From: Gammaproteobacteria bacterium
GTDB lineage: Bacteria; Pseudomonadota; Gammaproteobacteria; DRLM01
Direction: 5' to 3'
DNA: 64,000 bases
NCBI GenBank assembly: GCA_011375345.1
Contig: DRLM01000017.1
Location: forward strand, 675-64,674
This document shows, in pieces, positions 9,466 through 29,726 of this stretch (its first letter is position 1; every line of letters starts with the position of its first letter). The notes beneath the pieces are model-generated. The model saw only the letters and a program-made list of their open reading frames with translations. It was not told the DNA's origin and did not search any database. A program made the position numbers and the translations under genes.

Positions 9466-10304
9466 CTCCATCCGCATCACTGGCCCTGGATGCCCGCATC
9501 GCGCCGCGCCGCCGGTGCGCCCATGATTCATCCACGGCGCCCACCCGCTTGCGCCTGCTGAGCTACAACATTCAGACGGCCGTGGCCTCGGTCCGCCCCC
9601 ACCACTATCTGACCCGGGGCTGGAAGCATGTGCTGCCGCATTCGTCCACCTTCGACAACCTGGACCGCATTGCCAGACTGATCGGCCAGTACGACATTGT
9701 CGCGCTGCAGGAAGCCGATGCCGGCAGTTTGCGCAGTTACTTCATCAACCAGGTGGAATACCTGGCCCGGCGGGGGCAGTTCGCGCACTGGTTTCACCAG
9801 ACCAACCGGGACTTCGGCAAGCTCGCCCAGCAAAGTAACGGGCTGCTCAGCAAACTGCCTCCGGGAAATATCTCCCAACACCGTCTGCCCGGCCTGATCC
9901 CCGGCCGCGGCGCCATGGTGGTGAACTATGGTCACCGGCACACCCGGCTCGCCCTGATACTGGTCCATCTGGCCCTGGGCCGGCGCGCGCGGCAACAGCA
10001 GTTGGCTTATATCGCCGAGCTGCTGGGGGATTACCGTCATGCCGTGGTGATGGGAGACTTCAACTGCCCCTCACACAGCCCCGAGATGGAGGCGTTTTTG
10101 GATCAAACAGAACTGTGCGCGCCGGCGGAACAACTGCACACGTTCCCAAGCTGGCGGCCGATGCGCAATATCGACCATATCCTGGTCACCCCCAGCCTGC
10201 CCGTCACCCGCATGCAGGTGCTCAATCATGTGATTTCAGATCACCTGCCCATTGCCATGGAGCTGGAAATTCCCGCAGAGGTGGGGCTGGGGTATCACGC
10301 CTGA
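9462..10304 (+). CDS. Endonuclease/exonuclease/phosphatase (EEP) family protein
   Basis: LLSYNIQTA...IVALQEADAGSL...VVMGDFNCPSHSPEM...IDHILVT...ISDHLPIAMEL carries EEP catalytic motifs. ATG 9462 overlaps the upstream stop (ATGA). Confidence 0.8.
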   Translation: MTPSASLALDARIAPRRRCAHDSSTAPTRLRLLSYNIQTAVASVRPHHYLTRGWKHVLPHSSTFDNLDRIARLIGQYDIVALQEADAGSLRSYFINQVEYLARRGQFAHWFHQTNRDFGKLAQQSNGLLSKLPPGNISQHRLPGLIPGRGAMVVNYGHRHTRLALILVHLALGRRARQQQLAYIAELLGDYRHAVVMGDFNCPSHSPEMEAFLDQTELCAPAEQLHTFPSWRPMRNIDHILVTPSLPVTRMQVLNHVISDHLPIAMELEIPAEVGLGYHA

Positions 10305-10310
10305 GCGGTG

Positions 10311-10442
10311 TCAGTCCCGCTCAATGTGCTGACGTGCCCGCGCGGCGTCCATTCGGCGATGACGCAGATCGTCCCAGGCAAAGAGCGCCAGAACGCCGAC
10401 CACGAGAATCAGAATTACGATTTGAAAGATGATAGGTCCCAC
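10311..10442 (-). CDS. Possible small membrane protein (43 aa)
   Basis: GTG at 10442 is preceded by AAGGAAAAGACC (SD 8 nt upstream). Product is VGPIIFQIVILILVVGVLALFAWDDLRHRRMDAARARQHIERD, one TM helix plus a basic tail. Only sequence-level support. Confidence 0.3.
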   Translation of the reverse strand: MGPIIFQIVILILVVGVLALFAWDDLRHRRMDAARARQHIERD

Positions 10443-10759
10443 GGTCTTTTCCTTAGTTTGCGACAAACCGATTAGCAGTATAGCCTCCCCGGCATTGAAA
10501 ATCCGATAGTCCCGCTCAGTTTTGATCGGGCAGGAACCAGGATCACCCCCGCCGCCACAGAATGCAGCGTGCGGATTTCCCGCACTGCACGCTTGAGGAA
10601 GGGCTTCACAGCCCAGCGAATGACTGGAAAACGCAACTGATGCAGTTTCAGTCCTGAACGCTGTAACGGAAAACCCTCCGTGCACCAGATGCGCCTCTCT
10701 CCGTAATCGGGCTTTGACGGCCCGCTCGAACCAAAATCAAGCACCTAATGCAGATACCG

Positions 10760-10893
10760 CTTGCTCAGCAACAAGCTGTGCCCGGTGCACGGAAGCACCG
10801 TCATTCATCAAATGATATAAGACAGCCGGATACCGCGTGGGCAGCGGCCAGACTTGAAAAAGGCCAGAAAAGCCTTTTCCAACATCCTGTTAA
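10760..10893 (+). repeat. Intergenic repeat element, copy C (partial: core + 3' hairpin). Same family as 57073..57274 and 59016..59232
   Basis: It shares ...GTGCACGGAAGCACCGTCATTCATCAAATGAT... and ...GGCCAGACTTGAAAAAGGCCAGAAAAGCCTTTTCCAACATCCTGTTA with the other copies (TGCACCGTCA core; CAACATCCTGTTA end). The hairpin is TTGAAAAAGGC/GCCTTTTCCAA. Confidence 0.6.
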
Positions 10894-10974
10894 GGAACAG
10901 TTCAGCTTGACGGGATATTGTGCCCCAAACCATGGATGTTGCCATGGCAGGTTCCAGGAAAAGGAGGCACGATC

Positions 10975-12624
10975 ATGACCATTCGAACCATTGTACTTGC
11001 CGGCGCCGTCATCATGCTGGGCGCTTGCAACAGCGGAAACGTATCATCCCCCCCCGGCAAGCCCGGAAACAATGCGTCCGGGCAGCCCGCTTCCACCGCG
11101 GCCTCGTCGGCACCAGTGTCGGCGATGATCACCGACGATCTGAGCACCGCCTACGACGAAGTGTGGGTCACCGTGATTCAGGTCACCGCTGTGAGTGGCG
11201 ACGGTGGGGAATATGTGTTGTTTGACGCCCCTGACGGCGCGGTCTTCAATCTGCGTGAGCTGGCCGATGTGGCCACTTTGCTGGATACCGCAGACCTGCC
11301 CGCCGGTCATTACCCGCAACTCCGGGTGACTTTGGGTGGCGATCTCACCCTGGTGGATCCCCGGGGCCAGGTGCTGCAGGCCCGTTTCACTCCGGGCGGT
11401 GGTCCGAAAGTGCTGACCGTGGCGGCGGATCTTTCGGTCCGGGACGGCCAGCCGGCCAGCTTTGCCCTGGACTTCGACCTCAAGCAATTCAACTATGACC
11501 CCGCCACCGGCCTGGCCACGGCGACCATTGTCTATCGCGACGAGCGCAGCCTGCGCACCCTTCCGGCCCTCAGGGCCGAGTTGTCCGGGCAGGTGACGGC
11601 GGTCACCGACAGCCAACACTTCACCGTCTCGCCCGCGCACAGCGCCGGCGCCGTGGCCGTGACCCTGGCCGCCCAGGCAGTGGTGGTGGACCGCGCCAGC
11701 GACGCGGTGAAGAACGACACCGCTGCCCTGGCCAGCGGCCGGCGGGTGGAGATCTACGGCAACTACGATCCCACGGCGCTGACCATGGAGGCGCTGCGCG
11801 TGACGATCAAGGCCGCCGCTGGCGATGACCTGAACACCCGCGACGAAGCCGAGGGCCGGGTCGTCAGCTTCGACGGCAGCAGCCTGGTGCTGGATGTCAA
11901 AGAGGCCAGCTTCGTGCCCCCCGCCGACTTTCTCACCGTGGCCAATGTCAGCAACGCCCGTTTCACCAAAGGCCGGATGGAGCTGCTGCAAAGCGGCCAG
12001 GAGGTGGTGATCAAAGGGAGCCGGGACGGCAGCCTGCTGTTGGCGGACACGGTGGAAATAGACGGGGCGGCGGCTCCCTCCAGCCAGCGCCCCTTTGAGG
12101 TGGAATACGCCGAGCTGAGCGGCCGGATCAAAGCGCAGGACGGCGACCGGCTCACCGTCACCGTGGGGAAGGCGGAGCATTTTGCTGTCCCGGTGGGCGC
12201 CGAGATGGACGTGGACATCAGCAGCGCCTGGTTCAAGCGGGGGGAGCGGCGCTGCCTTACCGTCGGTGCGCACGCCGAATTCAAGGGCGCAGTGGAAAAC
12301 GGGGCCTTCGTCGCCCGCGCAGTCAAGGTGGAAAGTGGCTGCGGCGTGGGGGCGGCCGATGACGGGCACGGTACAGCCACCAGCGACGAGGGTTCCAGCG
12401 ACGGTGACCGTCAGCGCTCCCGGACCGACGACAGTTCATCGCCGGACGACCGGGCCGGTGCCAGTGACAAGGCGGGAGACGACCATTCCAGCAGCGCCGG
12501 CAGCGCGTCCGATGACCGTTCCAGCGCCCGCGATGGCGCGCGGGATGATCGTTTCGACCGCGGAGACGAGGCGGAGGATGACCCTTCCGGTGACCGGGAC
12601 AGCACCTCAGCCGACGCTCATTAA
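10975..12624 (+). CDS. DUF4382-like lipoprotein with an acidic Ser/Asp-rich C-terminal tail
   Basis: AAGGAGG RBS, 7-nt spacer, ATG 10975. Lipoprotein signal MTIRTIVLAGAVIMLGAC (lipobox LGAC). ITDDLSTAYDEVWVTVIQVTAV...FDAPDGAVFNL matches the DUF4382 N-terminal pattern. The last ~95 aa are D/S/G-rich. Paralogous to 15210..17141. Confidence 0.75.
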   Translation: MTIRTIVLAGAVIMLGACNSGNVSSPPGKPGNNASGQPASTAASSAPVSAMITDDLSTAYDEVWVTVIQVTAVSGDGGEYVLFDAPDGAVFNLRELADVATLLDTADLPAGHYPQLRVTLGGDLTLVDPRGQVLQARFTPGGGPKVLTVAADLSVRDGQPASFALDFDLKQFNYDPATGLATATIVYRDERSLRTLPALRAELSGQVTAVTDSQHFTVSPAHSAGAVAVTLAAQAVVVDRASDAVKNDTAALASGRRVEIYGNYDPTALTMEALRVTIKAAAGDDLNTRDEAEGRVVSFDGSSLVLDVKEASFVPPADFLTVANVSNARFTKGRMELLQSGQEVVIKGSRDGSLLLADTVEIDGAAAPSSQRPFEVEYAELSGRIKAQDGDRLTVTVGKAEHFAVPVGAEMDVDISSAWFKRGERRCLTVGAHAEFKGAVENGAFVARAVKVESGCGVGAADDGHGTATSDEGSSDGDRQRSRTDDSSSPDDRAGASDKAGDDHSSSAGSASDDRSSARDGARDDRFDRGDEAEDDPSGDRDSTSADAH

Positions 12625-12896
12625 GCCGCCCGCCCAGACGCCGCCCCCCGGGCGGCGCTGATTTCGTGGCTGCGCCAGGCTTGGCGCGTAGCGCTGTGAC
12701 TGGCGCTACTCCCCGGACTGCGGTGGCGAGGGGCGGACGTGGGGGTGTTCCTGCAAGGGGTGGGGATGTTGCCGCGGGATTGCGCTCTGATCCAAGCGTT
12801 TGGTGGTGCACGGCGCTCTGCCTGAACCGCCGCGCGCCGCACACATTGTCGCCCGGCATCGCGGGGGAATAAGCCGCCAGCGGGCTTGAACCGCCC

Positions 12897-13889
12897 TCAG
12901 CCCGCGTCCCGCGCACAGCGAAAGCCGACGTCTTCCGAACGCAGCTCCGGCTCCGCGTACTGGCGGGCGGCGCCGCGGAAGAACAGGCTCAAGGCATAGT
13001 GGCCTATGCCGCCGCCACCGCCGCGGATCACTTTGTATTTTTCACCAAAGTTGGCGCTGCTGTAGTCACTGCCGGGATAGGGCTGGTACCAGTCGGCGGT
13101 CCACTCCCACACATTGCCGGCCATGTCGTAGGCGCCGTAGGGGGACCGGTTGCCGGGATAGGCGCCCACGGGGGCGATGCCTTCTTCCCAGTCTTCGTTG
13201 TCGCCGGTGTTGGTGACGGTGGGATCCCACTCGTTGCCCCAGGGATATTCCAGGCCAGCGGGACCGCGGGCGGCTTTTTCCCATTCCGCTTCCGTGGGCA
13301 GGCGTTTGCCGCGCCATTGGCAATAGGCCTGGGCTTCGGCCCAGGTCATGCCGGTGGCGGGGTAGGGGTCCATCGCTTTTTGCGCCGCCTCCATGGCGGT
13401 CATCAGGGCTTTGCGGCTCATGGTGCGGGTGTCCATGTCGAAGCGGAAATGCTCGGCGGCGATGATGCGCAGGATTTTCATGTCCAGGCGTGCCGCTTCT
13501 TCCATGGTGAGGCCGTAGCCGTTGTAGTTCCAGGGCACGGGCAGGGGGCGCTCGGTTTTGAAGATGAAGGCCTTGAACTCAGCGTTGCTGACTTCGTATT
13601 TGTCGATGTAAAAGGCGGGCAGGGTGACGCGGTGCCGGGGGTGTTCGTCCAGGTACAAAGGGGCGGGAAAACCGTAGCGGCTGCTCAAATTCTCCTTGTC
13701 CTCTTTGTTGCTGCCCATGATGAAGTCGCCGGCGGAAACGAGGACCATTTCTTCGGTGACTGTATCGGGGGCGGCTGGGGGCGGGGAGGGGGGGGCCGCG
13801 GCGCCGCTGTTTTTGTCACAGGCGGTGAGCAGCGCGGTGAGGGCACCAACCAGCAGCGGAATGCGTTTTTTCGGAAAGAGCGGTATCAA
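12897..13889 (-). CDS. FGE-sulfatase/SUMF1 (PvdO/EgtB-like C-type-lectin fold) family lipoprotein lacking the FGE catalytic Cys pair
   Basis: TTG 13889 gives MIPLFPKKRIPLLVGALTALLTAC (lipobox). The alternative ATG 13997 would add 36 non-signal residues. Conserved FGE-fold motifs are YIDKYEVSNAEF, AQAYCQWRGKRLPTEAEWEKAARG, GNVWEWTADWY and GFRCARD. No C-x4-C pair precedes GFRC. Confidence 0.8.
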   Translation of the reverse strand: MIPLFPKKRIPLLVGALTALLTACDKNSGAAAPPSPPPAAPDTVTEEMVLVSAGDFIMGSNKEDKENLSSRYGFPAPLYLDEHPRHRVTLPAFYIDKYEVSNAEFKAFIFKTERPLPVPWNYNGYGLTMEEAARLDMKILRIIAAEHFRFDMDTRTMSRKALMTAMEAAQKAMDPYPATGMTWAEAQAYCQWRGKRLPTEAEWEKAARGPAGLEYPWGNEWDPTVTNTGDNEDWEEGIAPVGAYPGNRSPYGAYDMAGNVWEWTADWYQPYPGSDYSSANFGEKYKVIRGGGGGIGHYALSLFFRGAARQYAEPELRSEDVGFRCARDAG

Positions 13890-13944
13890 GGTTGCAGTCT
13901 CTGGCAATGGGTGTCGCTTTCTCTCATCATGCAAAAGGGGCCGG

Positions 13945-14997
13945 TTATTTTTTTTCTCCCTGACTCCTTTTTGCCGACGGGGTGGATGAGAGGGCATGCT
14001 CTGCTGCGGCGTCTTTGGCGCAGCGGAAACCGAAGGTATCGTTTTTGGTTTTGCGGGAGAAGAAGGCGCGGTTGTACACCGGCGCGGAGATGCCGCATTT
14101 GTAGAACGAACAGTCGAACCAGGAGCCGCCTTTCAGCGTCTTGTAGCGCTTGCCGTAATTTTCCGAGGGGGTGTGGTTGCCGGGATAGGCTTCATACCAG
14201 CTCGCCGTCCATTCCCACACATTGCCGGCCATGTCGTAGACACCGTAGGGGCTCTGGCCGCTTTCGAAGGCACCCACGGGGGTGGTGTCCCCGGGCTGGC
14301 CGATGGCGGCCCAGCGCACGGGGGTGTTGGCGCGGGGAAGGCCGAATTCATTACCCCAGGGGAAGCGGCGGCCGTCAGTGCCGCGGGCGGCTTTTTCCCA
14401 TTCCGCATCGGTGGGCAGGCGCTTGCCGGCCCATTGGCAATAGTTCCTGGCGTCGTACCAGTTGACGAAGGTGACGGGATGATCGGCCTTGCCGCGGGGG
14501 TAGGTGCGGTTGACGAAGTGGCGCGGCGAGCGGCGGCCGGCTTCGTCGATGTATTTTTTGTATTGGAGGTTGGTGACCTCATAGCGGTCGATCCAAAACG
14601 CCGGCAGGTCCACCACGTGCTGGGGGCCTTCGTCGGACAGGCGCTCGTCGGTGCCCATGATGAAGGGCCCGGCAGGGATGCGGACCATGGAATTGGGCTC
14701 TGCCCCCAGGCGGCTGTCCTCGTAGTAGAGGGGCAGGGACATGCCGGCGTCGGCCGCCAGGGTGCCCGCCTCCATTTCCGGCTCTTCGCCGGGGGCGACG
14801 GATACCGCCGGCGCGGCCCCGCCGGCGCGGTGGCAGCGCTGACAGCCGGCCCGACTGTCAGCAATGAGTCTGGCCGTGTCCATGCCCTCGCTGTGGCAGC
14901 GGATGCAGCCCTGCTCGCTGTGCAGATGATCAGCAGGCCGCGGCCCGGCCGCGGCGGCCAGGGCGGCGCTTAAAAACAGGGTGAAACTCAAAGCCAT
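13945..14997 (-). CDS. Secreted FGE-sulfatase/SUMF1 family protein with two N-terminal CxxCH (c-type haem binding) motifs and a conserved FGE-like Cys-x4-Cys pair
   Basis: Signal peptide MALSFTLFLSAALAAAAG. CIRCH (14889..14906) and CQRCH (14828..14849). FGE-fold motifs WIDRYEVTNLQY, ARNYCQWAGKRLPTDAEWEKAARG and GNVWEWTASWY. GGSWFDCSFYKCG (14086..14120) aligns with the human FGE catalytic region. Ends GFRCAKD. Confidence 0.8.
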   Translation of the reverse strand: MALSFTLFLSAALAAAAGPRPADHLHSEQGCIRCHSEGMDTARLIADSRAGCQRCHRAGGAAPAVSVAPGEEPEMEAGTLAADAGMSLPLYYEDSRLGAEPNSMVRIPAGPFIMGTDERLSDEGPQHVVDLPAFWIDRYEVTNLQYKKYIDEAGRRSPRHFVNRTYPRGKADHPVTFVNWYDARNYCQWAGKRLPTDAEWEKAARGTDGRRFPWGNEFGLPRANTPVRWAAIGQPGDTTPVGAFESGQSPYGVYDMAGNVWEWTASWYEAYPGNHTPSENYGKRYKTLKGGSWFDCSFYKCGISAPVYNRAFFSRKTKNDTFGFRCAKDAAAEHALSSTPSAKRSQGEKK

Positions 14998-15209: not shown

Positions 15210-17141
15210 ATGACACCATTTGCACCGGATTCATTTACATGGCGCGCTTTGCGCCGGGGTGCCGCGGGCTTGCTGCTGGTGCCGGCATTGCTGCTGGGGG
15301 CCTGCGGCGGGGGTTCCGACAGCAATGACCGCACTCTGACCAGCCAGAGCGAAGGCGAGGTGGTCATCGGCCTCACCGACGCCGCGGGCGATTTCCTGGC
15401 CTACGGCGTGGACGTGCTGTCCTTGTCCCTGACCCGTGCCGACGGCACGGAGGTGAATACCCTGCCGGCCACCACCCGCATCGACTTCGCCCAGTACACG
15501 GAGATGACGGAGTTTCTGACCGCTGCCACCATCCCCAACGGGCGCTACGTCAAGGCCACAATGAAACTGAAATATGACGGCGATCCGCCCGCTGATATTC
15601 AGGTGGAGGACGCTGACGGCAAGGCTGTGGCCGCCACCACCATCCTGGACGAAGACGGCAATCCCGCCACCGAACTGAGCGTGGACGTGCAGCTGGAAAA
15701 CGACCGGCCGTTGATCGTCGCCCCCGGAGTGCCCGCCCACATGACCCTGGATTTTGACCTGGCCGCCTCCCACAGCGTGGATTTGAGCGACCCGGCCAAC
15801 CCCGTGGTCACCGTGCAGCCTTTCCTGGTGGCGGATGTGGATCTGGACGAGCCCAAGCCCCACCGCTTGCGGGGCCGCCTAGCGGAAGTGGATCAGGCCA
15901 ATGAGGTCATCACCATTCAGATCCGCCCGGTGTTCCATGTCGGTGATCACGAGTTCGGCCGCTTCAAGGCCTATGTCAGCGACAGCACCGTGTACGAAGT
16001 GGACGGGGAAAGCTACACTGGTGCCGCCGGTCTGGCCGCCCTGGCTTTGCAGGATCCCACCTCCATTGTCGTCGCCATCGGCGAGCTGGATGCGGACCGC
16101 AAATTCAACGCCAGCGAAGTCTATGGTGGTACCTCGGTGGCGGCCAACACCGTTGACGTGGTGCAGGGCCACGTCATCGCCCGCAGTGGGGATGAACTCA
16201 GCGTGCGCGGCGCCACGGTGGTGCGCAAAGACGGCAGCGTCATCTTTCACGACACGGTGGCGGTGACGGTGTGCGACAGCCAGTCGGCGCAGCCCACCAA
16301 GGTCACCAAGCAGGGTGGCGGCAGCGAAACACTGGATATCGACGCCATCTCCGTGGGCCAGCGCATCCGCTTAGGGGGCACCCTGAGCGAGGACGCCTCC
16401 GCCGGCAATCTGTCCCTGGATGCTTGCGGCGGTCATGCCCGGCTGCTGTGGACCCAGATGAGCGGCGAAGTGGTGGCCGTGGCCGACGGCCTGCTCACCC
16501 TGGAGCTGCAACACATCGGTGGCCGGCCGCTTAGCCTGTTCGACTTCAGCGGCACCGGCCTGACGTCGGCGCAGGATGCCGATCCGGCCAGCTATGAAGT
16601 CGATACCGGCACTTTGGACCTCAGCGACAGCGATGATGTCAGCACCATCGCAGTGGGCAGCGCGGTGAAAGTGCGCGGCTTCGTCACCGCCTTCGGTATG
16701 GCGCCGCCGGATTTCAGTGCCCGCACCGTCATCGACCTGGACAAGGCGCCGGCCCACCTGGGCGTGACCTGGCGGCCCGCCACCAATGAGGCCTTTGTCA
16801 GCACCAGCAGCGATCTGCTCATGCTGGACCTCACCCAGCCTCTGGGCAGCCGCCATCACATCTGGCGCCGCGGGGTTCTCACCGACCTGCTGGACTTCCA
16901 GCCCACCGCACCGGGTATCACCCCCAAAGCGACAAGCGGCCGGGGCCTTTACGGGCTGTTGCAGGACGGCACGGCCCAGGTGTTCACCGACTTCGCCAGC
17001 TTTGAGGCGGAGCTGGAGAACCGCTTGAGCGCCGGCGGTCTGGTGGCGGCCACCCACGGGAAGGGGACTTTTGACGATAGCAGCGTGACCTTCAGTGCCA
17101 ACCGCCTGATGGTGCGTCTGCGGGCACCGGCCGGGTCCTGA
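15210..17141 (+). CDS. DUF4382-like lipoprotein (paralogue of 10975..12624)
   Basis: GGAGGA RBS, then ATG 15210. MTPFAPDSFTWRALRRGAAGLLLVPALLLGAC has lipobox LGAC. GLTDAAGDFLAYGVDVLSLSLTRADGTEV...TTRIDF parallels the N-terminal region of the other DUF4382-like protein. The ORF-track start 15177 is upstream and in frame. Confidence 0.75.
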   Translation: MTPFAPDSFTWRALRRGAAGLLLVPALLLGACGGGSDSNDRTLTSQSEGEVVIGLTDAAGDFLAYGVDVLSLSLTRADGTEVNTLPATTRIDFAQYTEMTEFLTAATIPNGRYVKATMKLKYDGDPPADIQVEDADGKAVAATTILDEDGNPATELSVDVQLENDRPLIVAPGVPAHMTLDFDLAASHSVDLSDPANPVVTVQPFLVADVDLDEPKPHRLRGRLAEVDQANEVITIQIRPVFHVGDHEFGRFKAYVSDSTVYEVDGESYTGAAGLAALALQDPTSIVVAIGELDADRKFNASEVYGGTSVAANTVDVVQGHVIARSGDELSVRGATVVRKDGSVIFHDTVAVTVCDSQSAQPTKVTKQGGGSETLDIDAISVGQRIRLGGTLSEDASAGNLSLDACGGHARLLWTQMSGEVVAVADGLLTLELQHIGGRPLSLFDFSGTGLTSAQDADPASYEVDTGTLDLSDSDDVSTIAVGSAVKVRGFVTAFGMAPPDFSARTVIDLDKAPAHLGVTWRPATNEAFVSTSSDLLMLDLTQPLGSRHHIWRRGVLTDLLDFQPTAPGITPKATSGRGLYGLLQDGTAQVFTDFASFEAELENRLSAGGLVAATHGKGTFDDSSVTFSANRLMVRLRAPAGS

Positions 17142-17166
17142 CAGGCCTGGTGCGTATAGCCCCGCT

Positions 17167-17195
17167 TGGGCGGCCTTCGGGCCGCCCTTTTTTAT
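17167..17195 (+). terminator. Rho-independent terminator (convergent gene ends)
   Basis: GGGCGGCC-TTCG-GGCCGCCC followed by TTTTTTATT. Lies between the 15210..17141 (+) stop and the 17231 (-) stop. Confidence 0.75.
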
Positions 17196-17230: not shown

Positions 17231-18166
17231 TCACGGCCGCCCCGACCCCACCAGTTTGATCAACAGTTCCCGCGGATTGCGCTCCGGGCGGAACAGTTCC
17301 CGTTGCGCAATGGTGCCGAAGCGGGGGCTCAGTTGGTCCGCGATGAACCGGGCCTGAAACCGGGCCTCGGGGTGATAGTAGATAATCTCAGTGGTGTTCA
17401 CGCTGACATTGGCCACGTCCACGCCGCCCAGCGTAAAACCGCTTTCAGCCAGGGTGCGCACAATCCAGTCGCGGTCCCGCGACCAGGCTGTCGCGGCCGG
17501 ATCCAGGTGGATGGTGAGTTTGAACAACGAGTTTTGCAGACGCCTGGCGTCGTTGCGCGCCGCAGAGGCTTGCACGATGAGCTGCCGGGCCTGCGCCAGG
17601 CCGGCTTCCAGGCTTTGTTTCATTTGCGCCAGTTCCTCTTGCGCACTTTCGGGGTTCAGGCGGCGCAGCGCATCGCGCAGCGCTTCGAGGTTTTCTTTCT
17701 CCTGGCGCAGCGCCTTGTTCACGTCTTCGGCTTGCTGTCTGAACCGCTCAAAATCCCGTTCGAACTGTTCCGTTTTTGCTTTGACATCGGCCACGGAGGT
17801 TTCCGCCTCTTGCGCCACTGCCGCCACTTTGTTTTGCAGGCTCTGCATCCCTGCTTTAAAGTCGCCCGCCTGCCGGATGCCGAAAAACGCCAGCAAGGCC
17901 ATGCCCACACCCAGCAGCCAAAGCTGGCGCTTGGCCCAGGCCATGATCTTGACCTGGATGGTTTCCTGGGTTTCGGCCGCGACCAGGCGGGCCTCCCGTT
18001 TGAACTGGTCTGTGGCCTGGCGGGCAAGCTCATCGGCCAGCTTGGCCGCGGCACCCGGGTTTGCAAGCTGGCCGGCCGTGGCGGGCAGGGCTGCACCGCA
18101 CTGGCTGCAGTAGCGCTGGGTGGCGCTGATTTCCGCGTGGCAGTCGGGGCACTCCATGGGACGCAT
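17231..18166 (-). CDS. Zinc-ribbon / single-TM / coiled-coil protein with a C-terminal LytR_C-like domain
   Basis: N-terminal MECPDCHAEISATQRYCSQCG (CxxC...CxxC). TM helix LWLLGVGMALLAFFGI. Long coiled coil (QEAETSVADVKAKTEQFERDFERFRQQAEDVNKALRQEKENLEALRDAL). C-terminal ESGFTLGGVDVANVSVNTTEIIYYHPEARFQARFIADQL resembles LytR_C. Confidence 0.7.
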   Translation of the reverse strand: MRPMECPDCHAEISATQRYCSQCGAALPATAGQLANPGAAAKLADELARQATDQFKREARLVAAETQETIQVKIMAWAKRQLWLLGVGMALLAFFGIRQAGDFKAGMQSLQNKVAAVAQEAETSVADVKAKTEQFERDFERFRQQAEDVNKALRQEKENLEALRDALRRLNPESAQEELAQMKQSLEAGLAQARQLIVQASAARNDARRLQNSLFKLTIHLDPAATAWSRDRDWIVRTLAESGFTLGGVDVANVSVNTTEIIYYHPEARFQARFIADQLSPRFGTIAQRELFRPERNPRELLIKLVGSGRP

Positions 18167-23200: not shown

Positions 23201-26200
23201 GTACCACCCCTGACAGCAGCGGCGCCCCCGGCACCTGGAGCGCCTGGCTGGGTCCCGATGATGCCGCCGGCAGCTACTGGAACTCCGGCAACACCAGTGC
23301 CGGCGGCTGCAGTGGCAGCGGCAGCGTGGTCTGCACGGTCATGGCCGACAGCCAGCGGGACGGCCTGGCGGACCAGTGGTTTCAGTACCGCGTCACGCTC
23401 ACTTCCGATGGCAGCGCCACCCCCACCCTGGCCAGCCTCACCAGCAGCTACGGCAGCAGCGGCAGCAGCGGCATCACGGTGACCCCCACCGGCGGCCTGG
23501 CCACCTCGGAAAGCGGGGGCACAGCCAGTTTCACCGTGGTGCTGGACAGCGCCCCCGGTGCCGATGTCACCCTCGGCATGTACAGCAGCGACACCACCGA
23601 GGGCACGGTCGCGCCCTCTTCGCTGACGTTCACCCCGGCCGACTGGAGCACACCCCAGACCGTTACCATCACCGGAGTCGACGACTTTTTCGACGATGGC
23701 GACGTTGCCTATTCCATCGTCACCGCCGCCAGCGTCAGCAGCGACCCCGCGTTCGACGACATCAACGCCGCCGATGTCAGCATCAGCAACGTGGACAACG
23801 ACACTGCCGGCATCAATGTCTCCCCCACCTCGGGTCTAATCACGACGGAAGCCGGGGCCAGCGCCAGCTTCACCGTGGTGCTGAACACCCAGCCCACGGC
23901 GGACGTGACCCTGGCCCTGTCCAGCTCCAACACGGCCGAGGGCACGGTTGCGCCCGGCTCGCTGACCTTCACCCCGGCCGACTGGAGCACGCCCCAGACC
24001 GTTACCGTCACCGGGGTGGATGAAAACGTCATTGACGGCGATCAGGCCTATACTGTCGTCACTGCCGCCGCCACCAGCGGCGACAGCCAATACAGCGGCT
24101 TCAACGCTGCTGACGTGGCCGTGACCAACAGCGATGACGACACCGCCGCCGTCACCGTGAGCCCCGCCACGCTGACGGTGAGCGAGGCGGGCGCCTTCGC
24201 CCCTTTCACGGTGACCCTCACCAGCCAGCCCACGGCCAATGTCACCATGATGCTGTCCAGCTCCGACAGCAGCGAGGGCATGGTGCTGCCCTTTGCCATG
24301 ACCTTCACCCCCAGCAACTGGAACACACCCCAGACGGCGACGGTGTTCGGGGTAAACGACCAACTGACAGACGGCGACCAGACTTTCGCCATTGTCACCT
24401 CCGCCTTCACCAGCGCTGACAGCAACTTCAACGGCGTCAACCCCGCCGACATCACCGTCACCAACACCGACGACGATACGTATTCCATCATCGTCACCCC
24501 CAGTTCGGGCCTGGTCACCACCGAGAACGGCGGCAGCGCGGAATTTAAAATCGCCCTGGGCACCCAGCCCACGGCGGATGTAACCATCAACCTCAGCAGC
24601 AGCGATACCAGCGAAGGCTATGTCACCCCGTCGTCCATCACCTTCAGCCCCAGCGATATCGTCAGCCGGGGCAAGCCGGTGAAAGTCATCGGCGTAAATG
24701 ACGCCCAGACCGACGGTGACCAAAGCTACTCGGTGATCACCGCCCCCGCGGTCAGCGCCGACAGCAATTTCAACGGCCTGGACGGCGCCGATGTGACGGT
24801 CACCAACCTGGACAATGCCCGCGACCTCATTCGGCTGGAAGGCAACCAGTACGGCGCGTTGTTTGGCTACAGCGCGGCGGCCGCTGATGTCAACGGCGAC
24901 GGTTATCAGGATCTGCTGGTCGGGGCTTACGGCAGCAATACCGTTTATGCGTACCTGGGCTCTCCCAGCGGTTATTCCCTGACCCCCGACTGGAAGGCGG
25001 TGGGCAGCGGCAGTTTCGGTTATGCCGTGGCCAGCGCCGGGGACATCAATAATGACGGCTATGACGATCTGCTGGTGGGCGCGCTGCAATATTACAACGG
25101 CCAGTCCACCGAAGGCGCCGCTTTTCTGTTCCTCGGATCCGCCGCCGGCCTGCCTGATGCAGACAGCGACGGCACTGCCCAATTGTCCGACGCCGCCTGG
25201 GCCTTCGAAAGCGACCAGACCGGTGCCAACGCCGGCGCCGCGGTTGCGGGAGCGGGGGATGTCAACGGCGACGGCTACGACGACATCCTCATCGGGGCCC
25301 AGTACTACGACAACGGCGAATCCAACGAAGGCGCCGCCTTTTTCTTCTATGGCAGCGCCACCGGTCCGGCCGATGCCGACAGCGACGGCATCGCTCGCCC
25401 CGGCGACGCCAACTGGACCTTTGAGAGCGACTATGCCAACGGCTATGCCGGCGCCGCCCTTGCCGGCGCTGGCGATCTCAACAACGACGGCAAGGCCGAT
25501 ATCATCATCGGCATTCAACGCTACAGCAACGGCCAGACCTACGAGGGCCGCGCTGTGGTCTTCTATGGCAGCGCCACCGGCCTCGCGGACGCTGACAGCG
25601 ATGGTACCGCCCGCATGAGCGATGCCGACTGGGCGGCGGAAATCGACCAAACCAGCGCCTACTTCGGTTATGCCGTGGCCGGCGCTGGTGATGTCAACGG
25701 CGACAACTACGACGACATTATCGTGGGAGCATATCTCTGGGATGCCGGTACCACCAATGAGGGCGGGGCCTTCGTCTTCCACGGTTCCGCCAGCGGCCTG
25801 CCCGACGGCGATGGCGATGGCCTGGCCAGGTTCAGCGATGCCAACTGGTCCGCCAGCAGCAGCCAACTCTATGCTGAACTGGGCCGCGCCGTGGCCACCG
25901 TCGGCGACTTCAACGGCGACGGCTACAGCGACGTCATCGTGGCCACCCCCGACTACGATGAAAGCTACGCCAGCGTCAATATCGACGAGGGCCGTGCCGC
26001 CGTTTACCTGGGCGCCGCGTCGGGCCTGGCCGGCAGCGCCTCCTGGACCGTTGCCGGTGAGCAGGCCAGTGCGCTCATGGGCTACGCCCTCGGTGGCCTG
26101 GGCGATCTCAACAGCGACGGCCAGGACGATGTTTTCGTGAGTGCATACCAATGGGAGTCCACCAGCGCCGAGAGCAATGAAGGGGCCGTCTTTGTCTACC

Positions 26201-29196
26201 TGAGCAAACCCCAGTCACCCGCCATCACCGTCACCCCCACCTCCGGTCTGCAAACCTCGGAGAGCGGCACCAGCGCCACCTTTACCGTGGCCCTGAACCT
26301 GCCGCCCACGGGCGATGTCACCATCGGCTTGTCCAGCTCCGACACCGGCGAAGGCACGGTCTCCCCCGGCGCGCTCACCTTTACCCCCACCGACTGGTAT
26401 CTGCCCCAGACGGTCACCGTCACCGGCGTGGATGACAGCGCTTTCGACGATGCTGTGGCCTACACTATCGTCACCGCCGCCGCCAGCAGCACCGACACCC
26501 GCTACAACGGCATCAACCCCAGCGACGTGGCGGTGACCAACAGCGACGACGAGCAGGCCGTCGTCAGCGTGAGCGCCACCGACGGAAGCGCGGCCGAAGA
26601 GGATTTGAGCACTGCCACCTTCACCCTTTCCCGCACCGGCCCCACCAGCGCGCCGCTGACGGTGAATTACACCGTGGGCGGCGATGCCACCCCAGGGAGC
26701 GATTATGTGGCCTTGGGCGGCAGCGTCACCATCCCGGCCGGGAGCGCCTCGGCCACCGTGACCGTCACGCCCCTGGACGACGCCATCGCCGAAGGCAGCG
26801 AGGACGTGTGGCTCAACATCAGCACCGCCGCCGCCTATGCCCGGGGCAGCACCTGGAGCACCAAGGTCACCATCACCGATGACGAGACCGGCGGTATCAC
26901 CGTCACCCCCACTTCCGGCCTGCAAACCCATGAAAGCGGTGGCACGGCCACCTTCACGGTGGTGTTGGACCAGCCGCCCGCGGCCGACGTGACTCTGGCC
27001 TTGCAGAGTTCCGATACCACCGAAGGCGCGGTGGTGCCCACTTCCCTTACGTTCACCCCGGCCAACTGGAACGTGGCCCAGACTGTCACCGTGGTGGGCG
27101 TGGACGACACCGGTTTGGACGGCGACGTGGCCTATACGGTCTACACCGGCGCCGCGGTGAGCACGGTGAGCGTCTACAACGGTCTGAACCCCGCCGATGT
27201 GGCGCTGACCAATCTGGACAACGAGGCCATCAACACCGTGAGCGTCACCGCCGCCACCGCCAGTCTGGCCGAAGCGGGAGCGCCAGCGGTGGCCTTCGTC
27301 GTGAGCCGCAGCGGCGATACCGGCGCCGCCCTGACGGTAAACTACAGCACCGGCGGCACGGCCACCTCCGGTGGCGATTACACCGCCTTAAGCGGCAGCG
27401 TGACCCTGGGCGCCGGCAACGACAGCGCCACCCTCACCCTGACGCCCCTGGACGACGGTACGGTCGAAGGCAATGAAACGGTGGTGCTCAGCTTAAGCAG
27501 CGCCGCCGCCTACCTGGTGGGTAAACCGGCATCGGCCACCGTGACGCTGGTGGACGACGAACAGAACACTCCCCCGGTGGTGAACTTCGGGCTGGATCAA
27601 ACCGTGGCGGAAGGCACCACTGCCACCGTCACCGCCGTGCTCAGCGGCCCGGCCCTGGCCTATCCGGTGACGGTGCCCTACACCGTCGGCGGCACGGCCA
27701 CCAACCCCGCTGACCACGACGCGGCCAACGGCAGCATCACCATCAGTTCGGGACTCAGTGGCAGCACCAGCTTCACCGTGGTGGACGACGGCGCCGGGGA
27801 AGCCGACGAAACGGTCATTTTCACCATGGGCACACCCACCAATGCCGCCGCCGGCGGGCGCACCACCCACACCGTCACCCTGACGGAACTCAATGTGGCC
27901 CCCAAGGTGAAGCTGGCCGCCGCCCAGGGCGGGGCGGGCACGCGGCTGGTGGTCAGCGGCGGCGGCAATGTGACCGTCACCGCCACGGTGAGCGATCCCA
28001 ACCCGGCGGACAGCCACAGCTACGACTGGAGCCGCAGCAACAACAATCTGGTGGACATTACCGACGGTGATCCGGCCACTTTTGTATTCGACCCCACCAG
28101 TCTCTCCCCGGGCTTTTACGCCGTGCGGGTGGACGTGACCGACGACGGCTCCCCTGCCCAGACCGGCCAGGCAGAGCTGCTGCTGCAAGTGGCGGCCAGC
28201 GCACCGGCCTTGTCTGCCGGCACCGACAGCGACGGCGACGGCATCATGGACGACGCCGAATCCTTCGACGACAGCGACGGCGACGGCATCCCCGATTACC
28301 TGGACGCCGCCACATTGGCCTCCCACGAGCTGCAGGTGCTGTCCGGCGAGGCGGCCAGCTACGTCATGCGCACGGAGCCGGGCCTGAGCCTGCGCCTCGG
28401 CGAGGTGTCCTTTGCGGCAGCCGCCGACGGGGCCGAGGTGAGCAGCACCGATATCGCCAGCTACGGTGGCGGTGAAGGCCAGCCGGGCAGCGCCCCGGCC
28501 ACCGACACGGTGGCCAATGTGGGCGGTTATTTCGACTTCGAAATCGGCGGCCTGACCCAGGCGGGGCAGTCGGCGCGGGTGGTCATTCCCCTGCTGGCGG
28601 CCATTCCCGAAGGGGGCACGTACCGCAAATACGACCCGGTCACCGGCTGGGCGGACTTCACCGTGGACAGCGCCAACGCCGTGGCCTCCGCCCCCGGCGC
28701 TCCCGGTGCCTGCCCCCTGCCGGGGGATGCGGCCTACACCAGCGGCCTCGGCAGCGGCCACTACTGTCTGCAGCTCACCCTTCAGGATGGCGGCCCCAAC
28801 GACGCCGACGGCGCGGCCAACTACGTCATTGCTGATCCGGGCGAACTGGCCCTCAAAGCCGTGACGGAGGACGCAGGACCGCTCGCCGCAGATGACAACA
28901 GTGCAGTGGACAATGGCACTGGGGGCACCGGGGGCACCGGGGGCACCGGGGGCACCGGGAGTGACAATACCCCGGCCCAAGACAACCGCCCCGACGCCGC
29001 CGCAACGGGCCGCACCGGCGGTGGCGCGCTTGGTCTCTTCGGCCTGCTCCTGCTGGCCATGGGTGGGCTGTGGACCCGGCAGGCTCCCAGGGCTGAGCCA
29101 GGTGGGGCCACCGCTGGGCCCCGCCTGGAAAAGCCTCTATACTTGGGCGCTGCTTGTTGGGGGAAGGGAGCCGGGAACGATGCGACTGAACAATAA
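20251..29196 (+). CDS. Giant (2981 aa) secreted/cell-surface multidomain protein with FG-GAP propeller x2, LVIVD propeller, Calx-beta and Ig/cadherin-like repeats, TSP3 repeats and a C-terminal hydrophobic sorting-like segment
   Basis: GAGGTGA SD, then ATG 20251 (the ORF-track start 20152 is an upstream in-frame extension). Long signal peptide ...IVAPALLCLLLLWSSAAVRA-GD. Repeated WNAPD(I/V)GSY..PALADLD(G/A)DGD(L/F)DL(M/L)(I/V)G units are FG-GAP. LQIIDVSDPANPTIVGSLDTPG units are LVIVD. TVNYTVGGDATPGSDYVALGGSVTIPAGSASATVTVTPLDD is Calx-beta. TDSDGDGIMDDAESFDDSDGDGIPDYLD is TSP3-like. The C-terminus is GRTGGGALGLFGLLLLAMGGLWTRQ. Confidence 0.85.
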   Translation: MTRGALRFRTLSIQDPPSPCPASSTSGTLRIVAPALLCLLLLWSSAAVRAGDFVQSDWSAGIPTDTTACSAAGGTWTGSECAAVHPGNQTGWSAYSTKDSLLNVTGGGADLQLGTTGDKVQDGSESDFTFSRNTAAQHTSNYDFSVGGTLSATTVRSGAVRLSETGHTPSWVANSAWNAPDVGSYSKPALADLDNDGDYDLMLGSSNGIVYGYRNTGTDATPSWTSQSSWNAPDIGSYVAPALADLDGDGDLDLMIGESAGLTFAYENTGTLSNPVWSAKPEWNLSTDVGSWAAPALADLDADGDFDLLVGNVDGVSYAFENTGNASAPVWTAKTAWNAPDIGGYSGPAAADLDGDGDVDLIIGSSGGISYGYANNGDNTWTANTAWDTPDAGSYVYPALADLDADGDLDFLAGNIGGNATGYRNDGSSTYAASGTMTSPVIDTVSQLGFTTLDYSATVPANTTLSLDVRAGDTATPDGSWTAWLTGVANGGDISTLGTRRYVQYRAVFATTDSSATPTLKDITFNYANYPLASAVARSGAGSAAAVTLGINFAPSITGTYNSPYSVVSVHVSGNYAFIADDSGNSFSAHRIVDISDPASPVQVAYTQHGARIWDVFVAGSYAYVAATDKGLAVVDISTPSAPVTVGTVDTPGWAWGVYVEGSYAYVGDYTTGGLQIIDVSDPANPTIVGSLDTPGDAHRIHVSGNYAYLTDGSSGLQIIDVSDKANPTLVATYSDTVNGVYVKGNYAYITGTGFKVLDISNPASPTLVGTAGGASAGQGVIVAGDYAYMADTNYLRVFDISEPTTPTQVSSTAVTYINDVYVVGNQAYASAASAGIHAMSLGPYSNSGSFTSQILDAGQHLGWTTLSATAAVPAGTSLSYDVRAGASATPDGSWTAWITGVADGGDISALGTLRYIQYRANFATSDTSVTPSLDAMALNFNHYAYSASLISSPFNTTAAGNLLDGLVWTETLPPGTDVRIELRTTPDSSGAPGTWSAWLGPDDAAGSYWNSGNTSAGGCSGSGSVVCTVMADSQRDGLADQWFQYRVTLTSDGSATPTLASLTSSYGSSGSSGITVTPTGGLATSESGGTASFTVVLDSAPGADVTLGMYSSDTTEGTVAPSSLTFTPADWSTPQTVTITGVDDFFDDGDVAYSIVTAASVSSDPAFDDINAADVSISNVDNDTAGINVSPTSGLITTEAGASASFTVVLNTQPTADVTLALSSSNTAEGTVAPGSLTFTPADWSTPQTVTVTGVDENVIDGDQAYTVVTAAATSGDSQYSGFNAADVAVTNSDDDTAAVTVSPATLTVSEAGAFAPFTVTLTSQPTANVTMMLSSSDSSEGMVLPFAMTFTPSNWNTPQTATVFGVNDQLTDGDQTFAIVTSAFTSADSNFNGVNPADITVTNTDDDTYSIIVTPSSGLVTTENGGSAEFKIALGTQPTADVTINLSSSDTSEGYVTPSSITFSPSDIVSRGKPVKVIGVNDAQTDGDQSYSVITAPAVSADSNFNGLDGADVTVTNLDNARDLIRLEGNQYGALFGYSAAAADVNGDGYQDLLVGAYGSNTVYAYLGSPSGYSLTPDWKAVGSGSFGYAVASAGDINNDGYDDLLVGALQYYNGQSTEGAAFLFLGSAAGLPDADSDGTAQLSDAAWAFESDQTGANAGAAVAGAGDVNGDGYDDILIGAQYYDNGESNEGAAFFFYGSATGPADADSDGIARPGDANWTFESDYANGYAGAALAGAGDLNNDGKADIIIGIQRYSNGQTYEGRAVVFYGSATGLADADSDGTARMSDADWAAEIDQTSAYFGYAVAGAGDVNGDNYDDIIVGAYLWDAGTTNEGGAFVFHGSASGLPDGDGDGLARFSDANWSASSSQLYAELGRAVATVGDFNGDGYSDVIVATPDYDESYASVNIDEGRAAVYLGAASGLAGSASWTVAGEQASALMGYALGGLGDLNSDGQDDVFVSAYQWESTSAESNEGAVFVYLSKPQSPAITVTPTSGLQTSESGTSATFTVALNLPPTGDVTIGLSSSDTGEGTVSPGALTFTPTDWYLPQTVTVTGVDDSAFDDAVAYTIVTAAASSTDTRYNGINPSDVAVTNSDDEQAVVSVSATDGSAAEEDLSTATFTLSRTGPTSAPLTVNYTVGGDATPGSDYVALGGSVTIPAGSASATVTVTPLDDAIAEGSEDVWLNISTAAAYARGSTWSTKVTITDDETGGITVTPTSGLQTHESGGTATFTVVLDQPPAADVTLALQSSDTTEGAVVPTSLTFTPANWNVAQTVTVVGVDDTGLDGDVAYTVYTGAAVSTVSVYNGLNPADVALTNLDNEAINTVSVTAATASLAEAGAPAVAFVVSRSGDTGAALTVNYSTGGTATSGGDYTALSGSVTLGAGNDSATLTLTPLDDGTVEGNETVVLSLSSAAAYLVGKPASATVTLVDDEQNTPPVVNFGLDQTVAEGTTATVTAVLSGPALAYPVTVPYTVGGTATNPADHDAANGSITISSGLSGSTSFTVVDDGAGEADETVIFTMGTPTNAAAGGRTTHTVTLTELNVAPKVKLAAAQGGAGTRLVVSGGGNVTVTATVSDPNPADSHSYDWSRSNNNLVDITDGDPATFVFDPTSLSPGFYAVRVDVTDDGSPAQTGQAELLLQVAASAPALSAGTDSDGDGIMDDAESFDDSDGDGIPDYLDAATLASHELQVLSGEAASYVMRTEPGLSLRLGEVSFAAAADGAEVSSTDIASYGGGEGQPGSAPATDTVANVGGYFDFEIGGLTQAGQSARVVIPLLAAIPEGGTYRKYDPVTGWADFTVDSANAVASAPGAPGACPLPGDAAYTSGLGSGHYCLQLTLQDGGPNDADGAANYVIADPGELALKAVTEDAGPLAADDNSAVDNGTGGTGGTGGTGGTGSDNTPAQDNRPDAAATGRTGGGALGLFGLLLLAMGGLWTRQAPRAEPGGATAGPRLEKPLYLGAACWGKGAGNDATEQ
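20750..21540 (+). other. Domain region: N-terminal FG-GAP (integrin-alpha-like) beta-propeller, about six blades with DxDxDG calcium-binding loops
   Basis: About six tandem units, e.g. SWNAPDIGSYVAPALADLDGDGDLDLMIGES, each of ~60 aa. Confidence 0.7.
21940..22780 (+). other. Domain region: LVIVD-repeat beta-propeller
   Basis: Repeats such as HVSGNYAFIADDSGN...RIVDISDPASP, GLAVVDISTPSAP, GGLQIIDVSDPANP, SGLQIIDVSDKANP and FKVLDISNPASP. Confidence 0.7.
24830..26180 (+). other. Domain region: second FG-GAP beta-propeller (about seven blades)
   Basis: Repeats like FGYSAAAADVNGDGYQDLLVGAYG and GAAVAGAGDVNGDGYDDILIGAQYYDNGESNEGAAFFFYGSATG, a classic integrin-alpha FG-GAP/Ca-loop pattern. Confidence 0.75.
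26560..27890 (+). other. Domain region: tandem Calx-beta-like domains interleaved with ~100-aa Ig/cadherin-like repeats
   Basis: LTVNYTVGGDATPGSDYVALGGSVTIPAGSASATVTVTPLDDAIAEGSEDVWL and ALTVNYSTGGTATSGGDYTALSGSVTLGAGNDSATLTLTPLDDGTVEGNETVVL are Calx-beta. The GITVTPTSGLQTxESGGTATFTVVLDxxP...TFTPxxWxxPQTVTVxGVDD repeats (also 23470..24830) are Ig/cadherin-like. Confidence 0.7.
28915..28959 (+). repeat. Perfect 9-bp tandem repeat (GGCAC[C/T]GGG)x5 encoding (GTG)5 linker
   Basis: ggcactggg ggcaccggg ggcaccggg ggcaccggg ggcaccggg read directly from the sequence. In frame (9 bp) within the giant gene, just upstream of the C-terminal hydrophobic segment. Confidence 0.9.
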
Positions 29197-29659
29197 CACC
29201 CTGGGACTGGCCTTGGCGGCACTGGTATCAAGCCTGCCGGCAATGGCTATTGGGGCGCCGGACGATCAAAATGACGGACGGAGCTGGCACTACAGTTTCG
29301 ACCACACTTACAGTCACGGCATGCCTTCTTCACGGATACCCCCCCAGCCCAGCTGGTTCAGCGGCCGTTTCGGTCTCGCCCGGGGCGTGGGCGAAGCGAT
29401 CCGCCTCCACCGCCTGACCCAGTGGGACAATGGCGAGCGCAGCTATGCCTATTACATCGGCGATGTCCTGTATGCCTGGTACGACCCCTGGGGCCTGGAG
29501 TTGAGCATCCGCGACCTGCAAGACACCACCCGGCCGGTGTGCCACTGGGATCCCCTCAGCCGCTTCCAGCGCGACAGCAGCGCGCCCCGGGAACACTGCG
29601 AAACACTGCTGCACAAGCTGGCAGCAACGCTGGCCAGAAGCGGGCCTGCGCCGCTTTGA
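29180..29659 (+). CDS. Small secreted protein (159 aa) of unknown function, overlapping the 3' end of the giant gene (likely co-transcribed)
   Basis: GGGAAGGGAG SD, then ATG 29180. Signal peptide MRLNNNTLGLALAALVSSLPAMA-IG. Its start lies 17 nt inside the giant ORF. No recognisable domain. Confidence 0.55.
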   Translation: MRLNNNTLGLALAALVSSLPAMAIGAPDDQNDGRSWHYSFDHTYSHGMPSSRIPPQPSWFSGRFGLARGVGEAIRLHRLTQWDNGERSYAYYIGDVLYAWYDPWGLELSIRDLQDTTRPVCHWDPLSRFQRDSSAPREHCETLLHKLAATLARSGPAPL

Positions 29660-29726
29660 TTCCCCGCCAAGCGCGCCGGACCGACCTGCAGACTGTGGGT
29701 TCTTTCAACAACTGAAGGCGGCCGCC

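Follow-up and report, generated by a model that had tools for sequence, protein, structure and literature searches.

Genes for exported proteins between EEP and suf in a gammaproteobacterial contig: a probable patchwork of autonomous envelope modules

Nine consecutive genes for proteins with a predicted location in the membrane or beyond the cytoplasm occupy about 19 kb between two groups of housekeeping genes in the DNA analyzed here, and the question they raise is whether they form one system, one acquired island or neither. The DNA is a stretch of 64,000 nucleotides (nt) from a Gammaproteobacteria bacterium (assembly GCA_011375345.1, contig DRLM01000017.1, positions 675 to 64,674, forward strand), referred to below as the window; it has 63% GC, and identical segments are present in hydrothermal-vent metagenome assemblies. 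The block in question lies at 10.3-29.7 kb of the window, between the EEP gene and the suf operon. An earlier reading of the letters of the window (the sequence-only reading) had proposed that it is a cell-envelope accessory region whose components may function together. We conclude, with a probability of about 0.75, that the block consists of five or six autonomous envelope modules, which form a lineage-specific patchwork at the rearrangement-prone engB-cNMP-dsbA-TPP-EEP/suf junction. The modules are a solo gene for a DUF4382/DUF5666 lipoprotein, an FGE operon, a second solo DUF4382 gene, a lipoprotein/Zn-ribbon pair, and a giant surface protein together with a Gly-rich protein and a small orphan. 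Functional coupling is supported within three of these pairs or triads and not across the 19 kb. On this reading, the run of exported products arises because lineage-specific genes gathering at such junctions typically encode envelope proteins.

Gene content, layout and composition of the block

Genes were called by frame analysis of GC content at third codon positions (GC3) together with Pfam and NCBIfam scans, and export signals were called with an in-house heuristic script (not SignalP) that looks for N-terminal hydrophobic regions, lipoboxes, ribosome-binding sites and starts. The gene content and coordinates that had been proposed for the block were confirmed by the frames and the scans: there are nine credible genes between EEP (9462-10304) and a Rieske gene (29727-30050, minus strand) that is the last of the suf operon. 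The claim that every one of them carries a signal peptide or a lipobox held for eight; the ninth product, a Zn-ribbon protein, is a bitopic membrane protein with no signal peptide. When the identical heuristic was applied to the flanks, 5 of 28 genes (18%) were exported or membrane-bound. According to a rough estimate of our own, nine exported or membrane genes in a row are expected about 0.01 times per genome at a base rate of 25%. The block reads + - - + - - - + +, with five strand switches and at least six transcription units, which are separated by gaps of 212-273 nt. If the run is counted as six independent transcription units rather than nine genes, 0.07-1.5 such runs are expected per genome (also a rough estimate of ours), so that the enrichment for exported products is only mild.

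The block is not a single operon, given its mixed strands, the gaps between its units and a putative terminator in its interior. The latter is a strong GC hairpin followed by a T-run, located at 17168-17187 between two converging genes (GGGCGGCC-TTCG-GGCCGCCC and then TTTTTT, with eight of eight GC pairs), and is predicted to act as a strong bidirectional terminator. A rival explanation is that independent modules are held together by selection for co-localised envelope expression, for example as an envelope-stress or biofilm regulon or through coupled transcription-translation-insertion, with no physical interaction implied. The exported run exceeds the naive chance expectation, and envelope genes are also found at the equivalent position in relatives (see below), as this explanation would have it. 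However, no common promoter or operator motif was detected in the block, sigma-70-like promoter matches were as frequent as in shuffled sequence (3 versus an expectation of 2.9), and none of the nine genes encodes a regulator. Among the explanations weighed here, we consider this one the least likely.

Both flanks consist of core genes, as the sequence-only reading had stated and as scans of the two sides confirmed. On the left they are gmk, yicC, rph, engB, dsbA, the TPP enzyme gene and EEP; on the right, the Rieske gene, sufT/U/S/D/C/B, Rrf2 and hemD, followed farther on by helicase, speA, def, dprA, smg, sulfite reductase and PRK genes. The reported lack of mobility genes, tRNA and direct repeats was likewise borne out. 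ARAGORN detected no tRNA or tmRNA in the whole window, and there were no matches to Rfam families. No integrase, transposase or other mobility gene was found by Pfam and NCBIfam among the nine genes and an additional open reading frame (ORF) at 10311-10685. No word of at least 11 nt is common to positions 10201-11000 and 29101-29800 in either orientation, and a general repeat search gave no such pair. The 19.4 kb block had no megablast match indicating plasmid or phage similarity. The sequence-only reading had also called for a comparison of GC content and codon usage, and the block did not differ from the 28 flank genes in GC (0.632 versus 0.633), GC3 (0.783 versus 0.792) or codon-usage distance (0.120 versus 0.119). 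Because block and flanks are indistinguishable in composition, composition speaks against an island. The block thus bears none of the genomic-island signatures that could be looked for, and one acquired island was rejected as an explanation on the combined lack of tRNA, mobility genes, edge repeats, compositional signal and plasmid or phage similarity.

A variant of the island explanation is that the block was transferred horizontally en bloc long ago and has since ameliorated in composition and lost its mobility genes. Its families are patchily distributed, it stands at a synteny breakpoint and a repeat lies at its left edge, all of which would fit such a history; the missing tRNA, integrase, transposase, boundary repeats, codon deviation and plasmid or phage match do not favor it. 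The repeat had been noticed before and is real. It is an intergenic, repetitive extragenic palindromic (REP)-like copy of about 120 nt at ~10770-10905 with a GGCC..GGCC hairpin (inverted-repeat pairs I1 and I2), and it aligns with copies at ~57130-57300 and ~58990-59160 with a mean column identity of 71%. All three copies in the window are intergenic and conserve the hairpin GGCCTT..AAGGCC, and one is inverted with respect to the others. The copy near the block sits in a 670-nt non-coding gap with a GC content of 0.55. The family looks like a REP or terminator-type element, and the block is not flanked by it.

Synteny at the junction and recurrence of the modules

To place the block in relation to other genomes, the region after EEP was compared in six relatives from soil and marine metagenomes, Sulfurivermis fontis and two chromosomes of metagenome-assembled genomes (loci L083-L086 and L167-L169). 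The order engB-cNMP-dsbA-TPP-EEP was kept in all six. In four of them EEP is followed by zero to three hypothetical or envelope genes and then by lipA-lipB, which in L085 and L168 continues via DUF493, dat, dacA, rlpA, mltB and rodA to mrdA; in the remaining two, EEP is followed by urease genes in one and by a GGDEF gene in the other. The genes inserted after EEP in the relatives include two related lipoproteins of ~380 amino acids (aa), a two-helix membrane protein of 158/159 aa and a 1229-aa S8 peptidase. None of the six has block genes or suf after EEP. Conversely, the neighbors seen in the relatives (polA, type II secretion system genes, and lipA to rodA) occur nowhere in the 64-kb window, indicating that the window genome is rearranged on both sides of engB-EEP.

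The sequence-only reading had suggested looking for strains in which the block is missing and dsbA and suf are adjacent. The block is indeed absent after EEP in these six distant relatives; dsbA and suf are adjacent in none of them, so that a simple insertion between conserved neighbors does not account for the block. The results suggest that the position after EEP is a recurrent hot spot for lineage-specific envelope genes. We also asked whether the 159-aa orphan at the right end of the block corresponds to the 158/159-aa gene after EEP in L085 and L168, and rejected this match since the two have no similarity.

If the nine genes belonged to one system, their homologues should keep company elsewhere. 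The modules traced in other genomes were the second DUF4382 gene, the FGE pair, the lipoprotein/Zn-ribbon pair and the giant/Gly-rich pair. A conserved neighborhood was found for each of the three pairs and not for the block as a whole.

The two DUF4382 lipoproteins are both solo genes on the plus strand. The first (DUF4382a, 10975-12624) combines DUF4382 (E 2.6e-12; 47.6 bits versus a cutoff of 25) with DUF5666 (E 3.2e-8), both above the Pfam cutoff, and has an acidic Ser/Asp-rich tail; its ATG at 10975 follows AAGGAGG, and its N-terminus, MTIRTIVLAGAVIMLGAC, contains a lipobox. The second (DUF4382b, 15210-17141, ~640 aa) matches DUF4382 with an E of 6.9e-7 (30.0 bits versus a cutoff of 25) and has the lipobox LLGAC behind an RR-containing n-region. 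Beyond the shared domain, BLAST detected no similarity between them. Full-length homologues of DUF4382b with 32-45% identity were present in 80 species genomes, including Woeseiaceae, Steroidobacteraceae, Acidobacteriota and others, where their conserved neighbors (a PAS-GGDEF-EAL gene, nadC, rnt and aceE) represent ordinary chromosomal synteny. A weak FGE homologue was found at variable distance in only 4 of these 80 loci, and none within ~0.7 kb in a second survey; no other block family is linked to DUF4382b homologues. The order DUF4382-FGE-FGE-DUF4382 in the window could be taken for a conserved four-gene unit, and this possibility was rejected: DUF4382a was found in 0 of the 80 DUF4382b loci, and a DUF4382 gene in 0 of 80 metagenomic loci with cytochrome-FGE homologues. 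A search of the literature on DUF4382 and FGE-cytochrome fusions returned nothing useful.

The FGE operon lies on the minus strand. Its first gene (FGE2cyt, 13945-14997) encodes an FGE-family protein whose N-terminus bears a dihaem c-type motif pair (Pfam FGE-sulfatase, E 2e-62; two CxxCH motifs), and its second (FGE1, 12897-13889, with an ambiguous start up to 13997) encodes an FGE-family lipoprotein (E 1.7e-59; lipobox LLTAC). Because FGE2cyt carries a signal peptide and two CxxCH haem motifs, it is predicted to be periplasmic; its best solved relatives are SUMF2/pFGE and FGE (E ~1e-32 to 1e-33). Alignment splits the FGE proteins into two subtypes, one with two CxxCH motifs and GGSW.DCSFY.C, the other a lipoprotein with GGG.GG.GHY. 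All four members of the former conserve the two CxxCH motifs and the CSFY[KQR]C pair, and in all members of the latter GGG.GG.GHY replaces the Cys pair, with both cysteines missing. FGE2cyt and its three orthologues have C-x4-C where FGE has its catalytic, copper-binding C-x4-C, with the alignment shifted by one residue and the equivalence of the cysteines unproven. By analogy with SUMF1/SUMF2, the pair may consist of a redox enzyme and a non-catalytic paralogue. The order of cytochrome-FGE followed by FGE lipoprotein was kept in the two closest loci. In L087 (9725-14007) the pair occurs twice in tandem, with identities of 60/58% and 56/43%, and is flanked by dnaE-accA-tilS and a sensor kinase gene; in L088 (5205-7014) it occurs once.

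The lipoprotein/Zn-ribbon operon is also on the minus strand. It starts with a 277-aa lipoprotein (18171-19004) and continues, 4 nt from the stop codon, with the Zn-ribbon protein (17231-18166), which combines a Zn_Ribbon_1 domain (Pfam E 2.2e-6) with one membrane helix (residues ~82-97), a coiled coil and, at its C-terminus, a small domain. The name LytR_C (PF13399) that had been attached to this protein was not sustained, the match over its C-terminal 99 residues being sub-threshold (E 0.093; 14.1 bits versus a cutoff of 22.2). The lipoprotein family is rare, with 14 clusters among 5.8 billion proteins. In seven of the eight loci L170-L177 the lipoprotein homologue is followed immediately by a Zn-ribbon homologue (24-27% identity); the remaining locus, L175, ends at the lipoprotein gene. 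The pair recurs in two other lineages, beside valS, an ABC transporter and hydrolases. A structural model of the lipoprotein (pLDDT 83) has a small 8-stranded barrel with flanking helices; assignment of a function from this fold was rejected because the barrel is generic and indicates no specific function. The two proteins are likely to be a translationally coupled pair, which could serve in trans-membrane anchoring or signalling with the Zn ribbon in the cytoplasm.

Each module that was traced was thus found elsewhere without the others, and the giant/Gly-rich pair, described in the next section, conforms to this. These data bear on the proposal that the nine genes form one cell-envelope accessory system, such as a surface-structure assembly pathway around the giant protein. 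In its favor, all nine products are predicted to be outside the cytoplasm or in the membrane, the block is missing from the post-EEP position in six of six relatives, and several of its families are rare or orphan. Against it stand the separate occurrence of the modules, the presence of only the Gly-rich family beside giant orthologues, and the strand switches and internal terminator noted above. We regard a single system as very unlikely. The description as accessory cell-envelope genes is a fair one, since the block is lineage-specific at its position and its families are patchy or rare; the part of the earlier proposal that does not hold is that its components are one functional unit.

The same data argue against an old island. 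The modules differ in their taxonomic affinities and in their neighbors elsewhere, which indicates separate histories rather than one transfer, and differences from the relatives on both sides of engB-EEP point to rearrangement rather than clean insertion. En bloc transfer is therefore an unlikely origin of the block, and we favor a patchwork of autonomous modules.

Several points weigh against the patchwork reading. At the gene level, nine exported or membrane genes in a row are unusual, and selection for clustering or for co-regulation is possible. The signal-peptide calls are heuristic. The comparison set is distant, since even its closest members share just 75-80% identity with the window in the TPP enzyme, a highly conserved protein. 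In the relatives, synteny was followed on the EEP side of the junction, and of the two DUF4382 genes the neighborhoods of DUF4382b homologues were covered. Finally, the recurrence of the FGE, lipoprotein/Zn-ribbon and giant/Gly-rich pairs derives from two to three independent lineages each.

Taken one by one, the proteins belong or are related to known families (DUF4382, FGE-sulfatase, FG-GAP/LVIVD/Calx-beta and choice-of-anchor U), and the remaining families are small and uncharacterised. Bacterial genomes commonly show runs of envelope genes where synteny breaks, and the block as originally posed matters little. The by-product of the analysis is the resolution of three small conserved modules, namely the FGE pair, the lipoprotein/Zn-ribbon pair and the giant/Gly-rich pair.

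A few features of the surroundings were recorded in addition. A candidate ORF for a 43-aa single-helix membrane protein (10311-10442, minus strand) is convergent with EEP and has an AAGGA site 5′ of its GTG start. Its hydrophobic core, FQIVILILVVGVLALFAWDD, resembles that of a 50-aa gene right after EEP in L083/L084 (12468-12620, minus strand; LQIAVIGAVVGLLGLFAYDD), and a motif search of the four other relatives gave no counterpart. If this ORF is real, the conserved left-hand synteny block might end at ~10442 rather than at 10304. On the other side, the suf operon (Rrf2-sufBCDS-sufU-sufT) closes with the small Rieske [2Fe-2S] gene at 29727-30050, an unusual terminal member. Three long ORFs at the window ends (243-977 and 993-2123, plus strand; 61525-62850, minus strand) had no Pfam match.

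The giant surface protein and the Gly-rich family

The largest gene of the block (20251-29196, plus strand) encodes a 2981-aa surface protein with a signal peptide ending in AVRA, ahead of GD. From the N-terminus onward it consists of the signal peptide, FG-GAP/VCBS repeats, an LVIVD propeller, approximately seven 112-aa repeats, a seven-blade FG-GAP region, two Calx-beta domains, a choice-of-anchor U domain, GGG, a hydrophobic helix, Arg and a 36-aa tail. The domains were detected with high significance by Pfam (LVIVD, 4e-62; FG-GAP, 7e-46; Calx-beta, 1e-33) and NCBIfam (choice_anch_U, 5.9e-14). The anchor segment, GRTGGG-ALGLFGLLLLAMGGLW-TRQ, has the tripartite GlyGly-CTERM architecture in a protein with a signal peptide. 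Its GlyGly_CTERM (TIGR03501) score of 11.9-13.0 bits is below the cutoff of 15.5, and the equivalent segments of the related giants P0206 and P0262 pass that cutoff (19.9 and 22.3 bits). Collinear orthologues include P0152 (50% identity) and the giant of locus L183 (42% identity, 2955 aa), which has a near-terminal GGGGS, helix and HHRKVRLKAC and stops immediately behind this basic cluster.

A gene for a 270-aa, all-beta, Gly-rich secreted protein (19231-20043, minus strand) with a signal peptide ending in AAA, ahead of EF, is transcribed divergently from the giant gene. The Gly-rich family comprises ~315 homologue clusters at 50% identity and has no Pfam or NCBIfam match. Its AlphaFold2 model (pLDDT 87, pTM 0.82) is all-beta and had no significant fold match in the PDB. 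Most homologues are stand-alone proteins of ~300 aa with a conserved mature N-terminus, typically EF.LNF. Seven of the best 150 homologues are instead the C-terminal ~220 residues of giant proteins (P0152, P0165, P0168, P0174, P0206, P0238 and P0262). All seven share the order GGG, hydrophobic helix, basic cluster, 5-25 residues, a second hydrophobic segment that ends in an A-x-A-like site, and the Gly-rich domain.

The genes are also linked when they are separate. In loci L183-L186 a giant orthologue is divergent from two tandem Gly-rich paralogues, the arrangement seen in the window, and the fused P0152 gene (L181) stands between a helicase gene and pstCAB-phoU. No block gene other than Gly-rich lies beside the giant orthologues in L181 or L183-L186; in L183, a 267-aa gene that lies downstream of Gly-rich was considered as a homologue of the 277-aa lipoprotein and rejected, as it is the second Gly-rich paralogue. 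In two further lineages, the DNA fetched around a Gly-rich homologue contained no giant gene, so that the link is frequent and not obligatory.

The fusion of the Gly-rich domain behind a GlyGly-CTERM-like anchor in seven giants suggests, as a Rosetta-stone link, a dedicated partner. It is possible, at somewhat less than even odds, that the Gly-rich family as a whole is the dedicated partner of giant surface proteins with a GlyGly-CTERM-type anchor. As with all block proteins, the biochemical roles considered here are predictions. The giant is probably a Sec-exported surface protein with a C-terminal helix anchor that is matured by a rhombosortase-like protease. This route is drawn from the domain content and the fusions and is modelled on the described GlyGly-CTERM pathway (PMC3237569, PMC6219818). 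The giant would be exported via Sec, held in the inner membrane by its GGG-helix-Arg segment and freed for surface display by a rhombosortase-type protease; among the genes scanned in the 64-kb window, none is of the rhombosortase or rhomboid family. The Gly-rich protein, probably the partner of the giant, would be co-exported and act on or with it as a receptor, anchor or maturation factor. A fused polyprotein would contain, in order, the giant body, the GGG-helix-basic cluster, a short loop in the cytoplasm, an internal helix that resembles a signal peptide and ends in an A-x-A-like site, and the Gly-rich domain. From it, an intramembrane protease and signal peptidase would release two products outside the cytoplasm at a ratio of 1:1. 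The window would carry this pair split into two divergent genes.

If this is true, Gly-rich would add an accessory component, so far undescribed, to rhombosortase-type surface display, and the fused giants would be a natural exception to the location of GlyGly-CTERM at the extreme C-terminus. The giant/Gly-rich module is consequently the most useful outcome of the analysis, as it provides a testable hypothesis on the maturation and anchoring of very large GlyGly-CTERM-type proteins and, in the natural fusion proteins, material for studying it.

The third member of this module is a 159-aa orphan with a signal peptide (29180-29659, plus strand), recognized by a ribosome-binding site and MRLNNNTLGLALAALVSSLPAMA, ahead of IG. 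Its start overlaps the last 17 nt of the giant gene in a different frame, and its GC3 of 0.756 falls among those of the other genes. Pfam and NCBIfam scans gave no match, and a database search matched only the protein itself. The orphan occupies the position that the internal signal peptide and Gly-rich domain have in the fused giants, and one frameshift would recreate the fused architecture there, with an unrelated domain.

Comparison with known systems

The block resembles genomic islands and integrative elements in that it consists of lineage-specific accessory genes, enriched in surface proteins, between core blocks. It differs from them in having no integrase, tRNA target, flanking repeats or compositional signature, and in that its contents are separable modules with separate distributions.

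Both genes of the FGE pair match the FGE-sulfatase domain strongly, and one paralogue keeps a C-x4-C near the catalytic-Cys position while the other does not, as in FGE/SUMF1 and pFGE/SUMF2. The paralogue without the Cys pair, FGE1, is a lipoprotein, which recalls PorK/GldK and GldJ. Unlike FGE/SUMF1, the Cys-bearing paralogue has two CxxCH haem-binding motifs and a signal peptide. In addition, scores fall far short of the equivalog model cutoffs for EgtB, SenA, GldK and PvdO, and neither sulfatase nor type IX secretion system genes are near the pair, in contrast to the FGE and PorK/GldK systems.

In size, in its tandem Ig-like/Calx-beta-like repeats and in the Ca-binding D-x-D-x-D-G loops of its FG-GAP repeats, the giant protein resembles giant Gram-negative adhesins built from FG-GAP/VCBS, Calx-beta and beta-propeller domains. 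RTX/type-1-secreted adhesins, such as LapA, SiiE and similar proteins, are not known to have an N-terminal signal peptide and generally carry an RTX/type I secretion signal at the end. The window giant differs from these in having a Sec-type signal peptide and a membrane-anchor-type C-terminus, with no type I secretion genes nearby.

The giant can also be compared with the GlyGly-CTERM/rhombosortase proteins (Haft & Varghese 2011, PMC3237569), which include VesB of Vibrio cholerae (PMC6219818). It shares with them the N-terminal signal peptide, a choice-of-anchor domain immediately ahead of the anchor, and the tripartite anchor of GGG, hydrophobic helix and basic residue. In described GlyGly-CTERM proteins zero to five residues follow the helix, and the terminal location is a defining feature (PMC3237569). 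By contrast, 36 residues follow the segment in the window giant, and in its seven fused relatives a second hydrophobic segment and a ~220-aa domain follow, amounting to more than 230 residues. A Gly-rich domain placed behind a GlyGly-CTERM-like segment is the sole element that departs from described biology.

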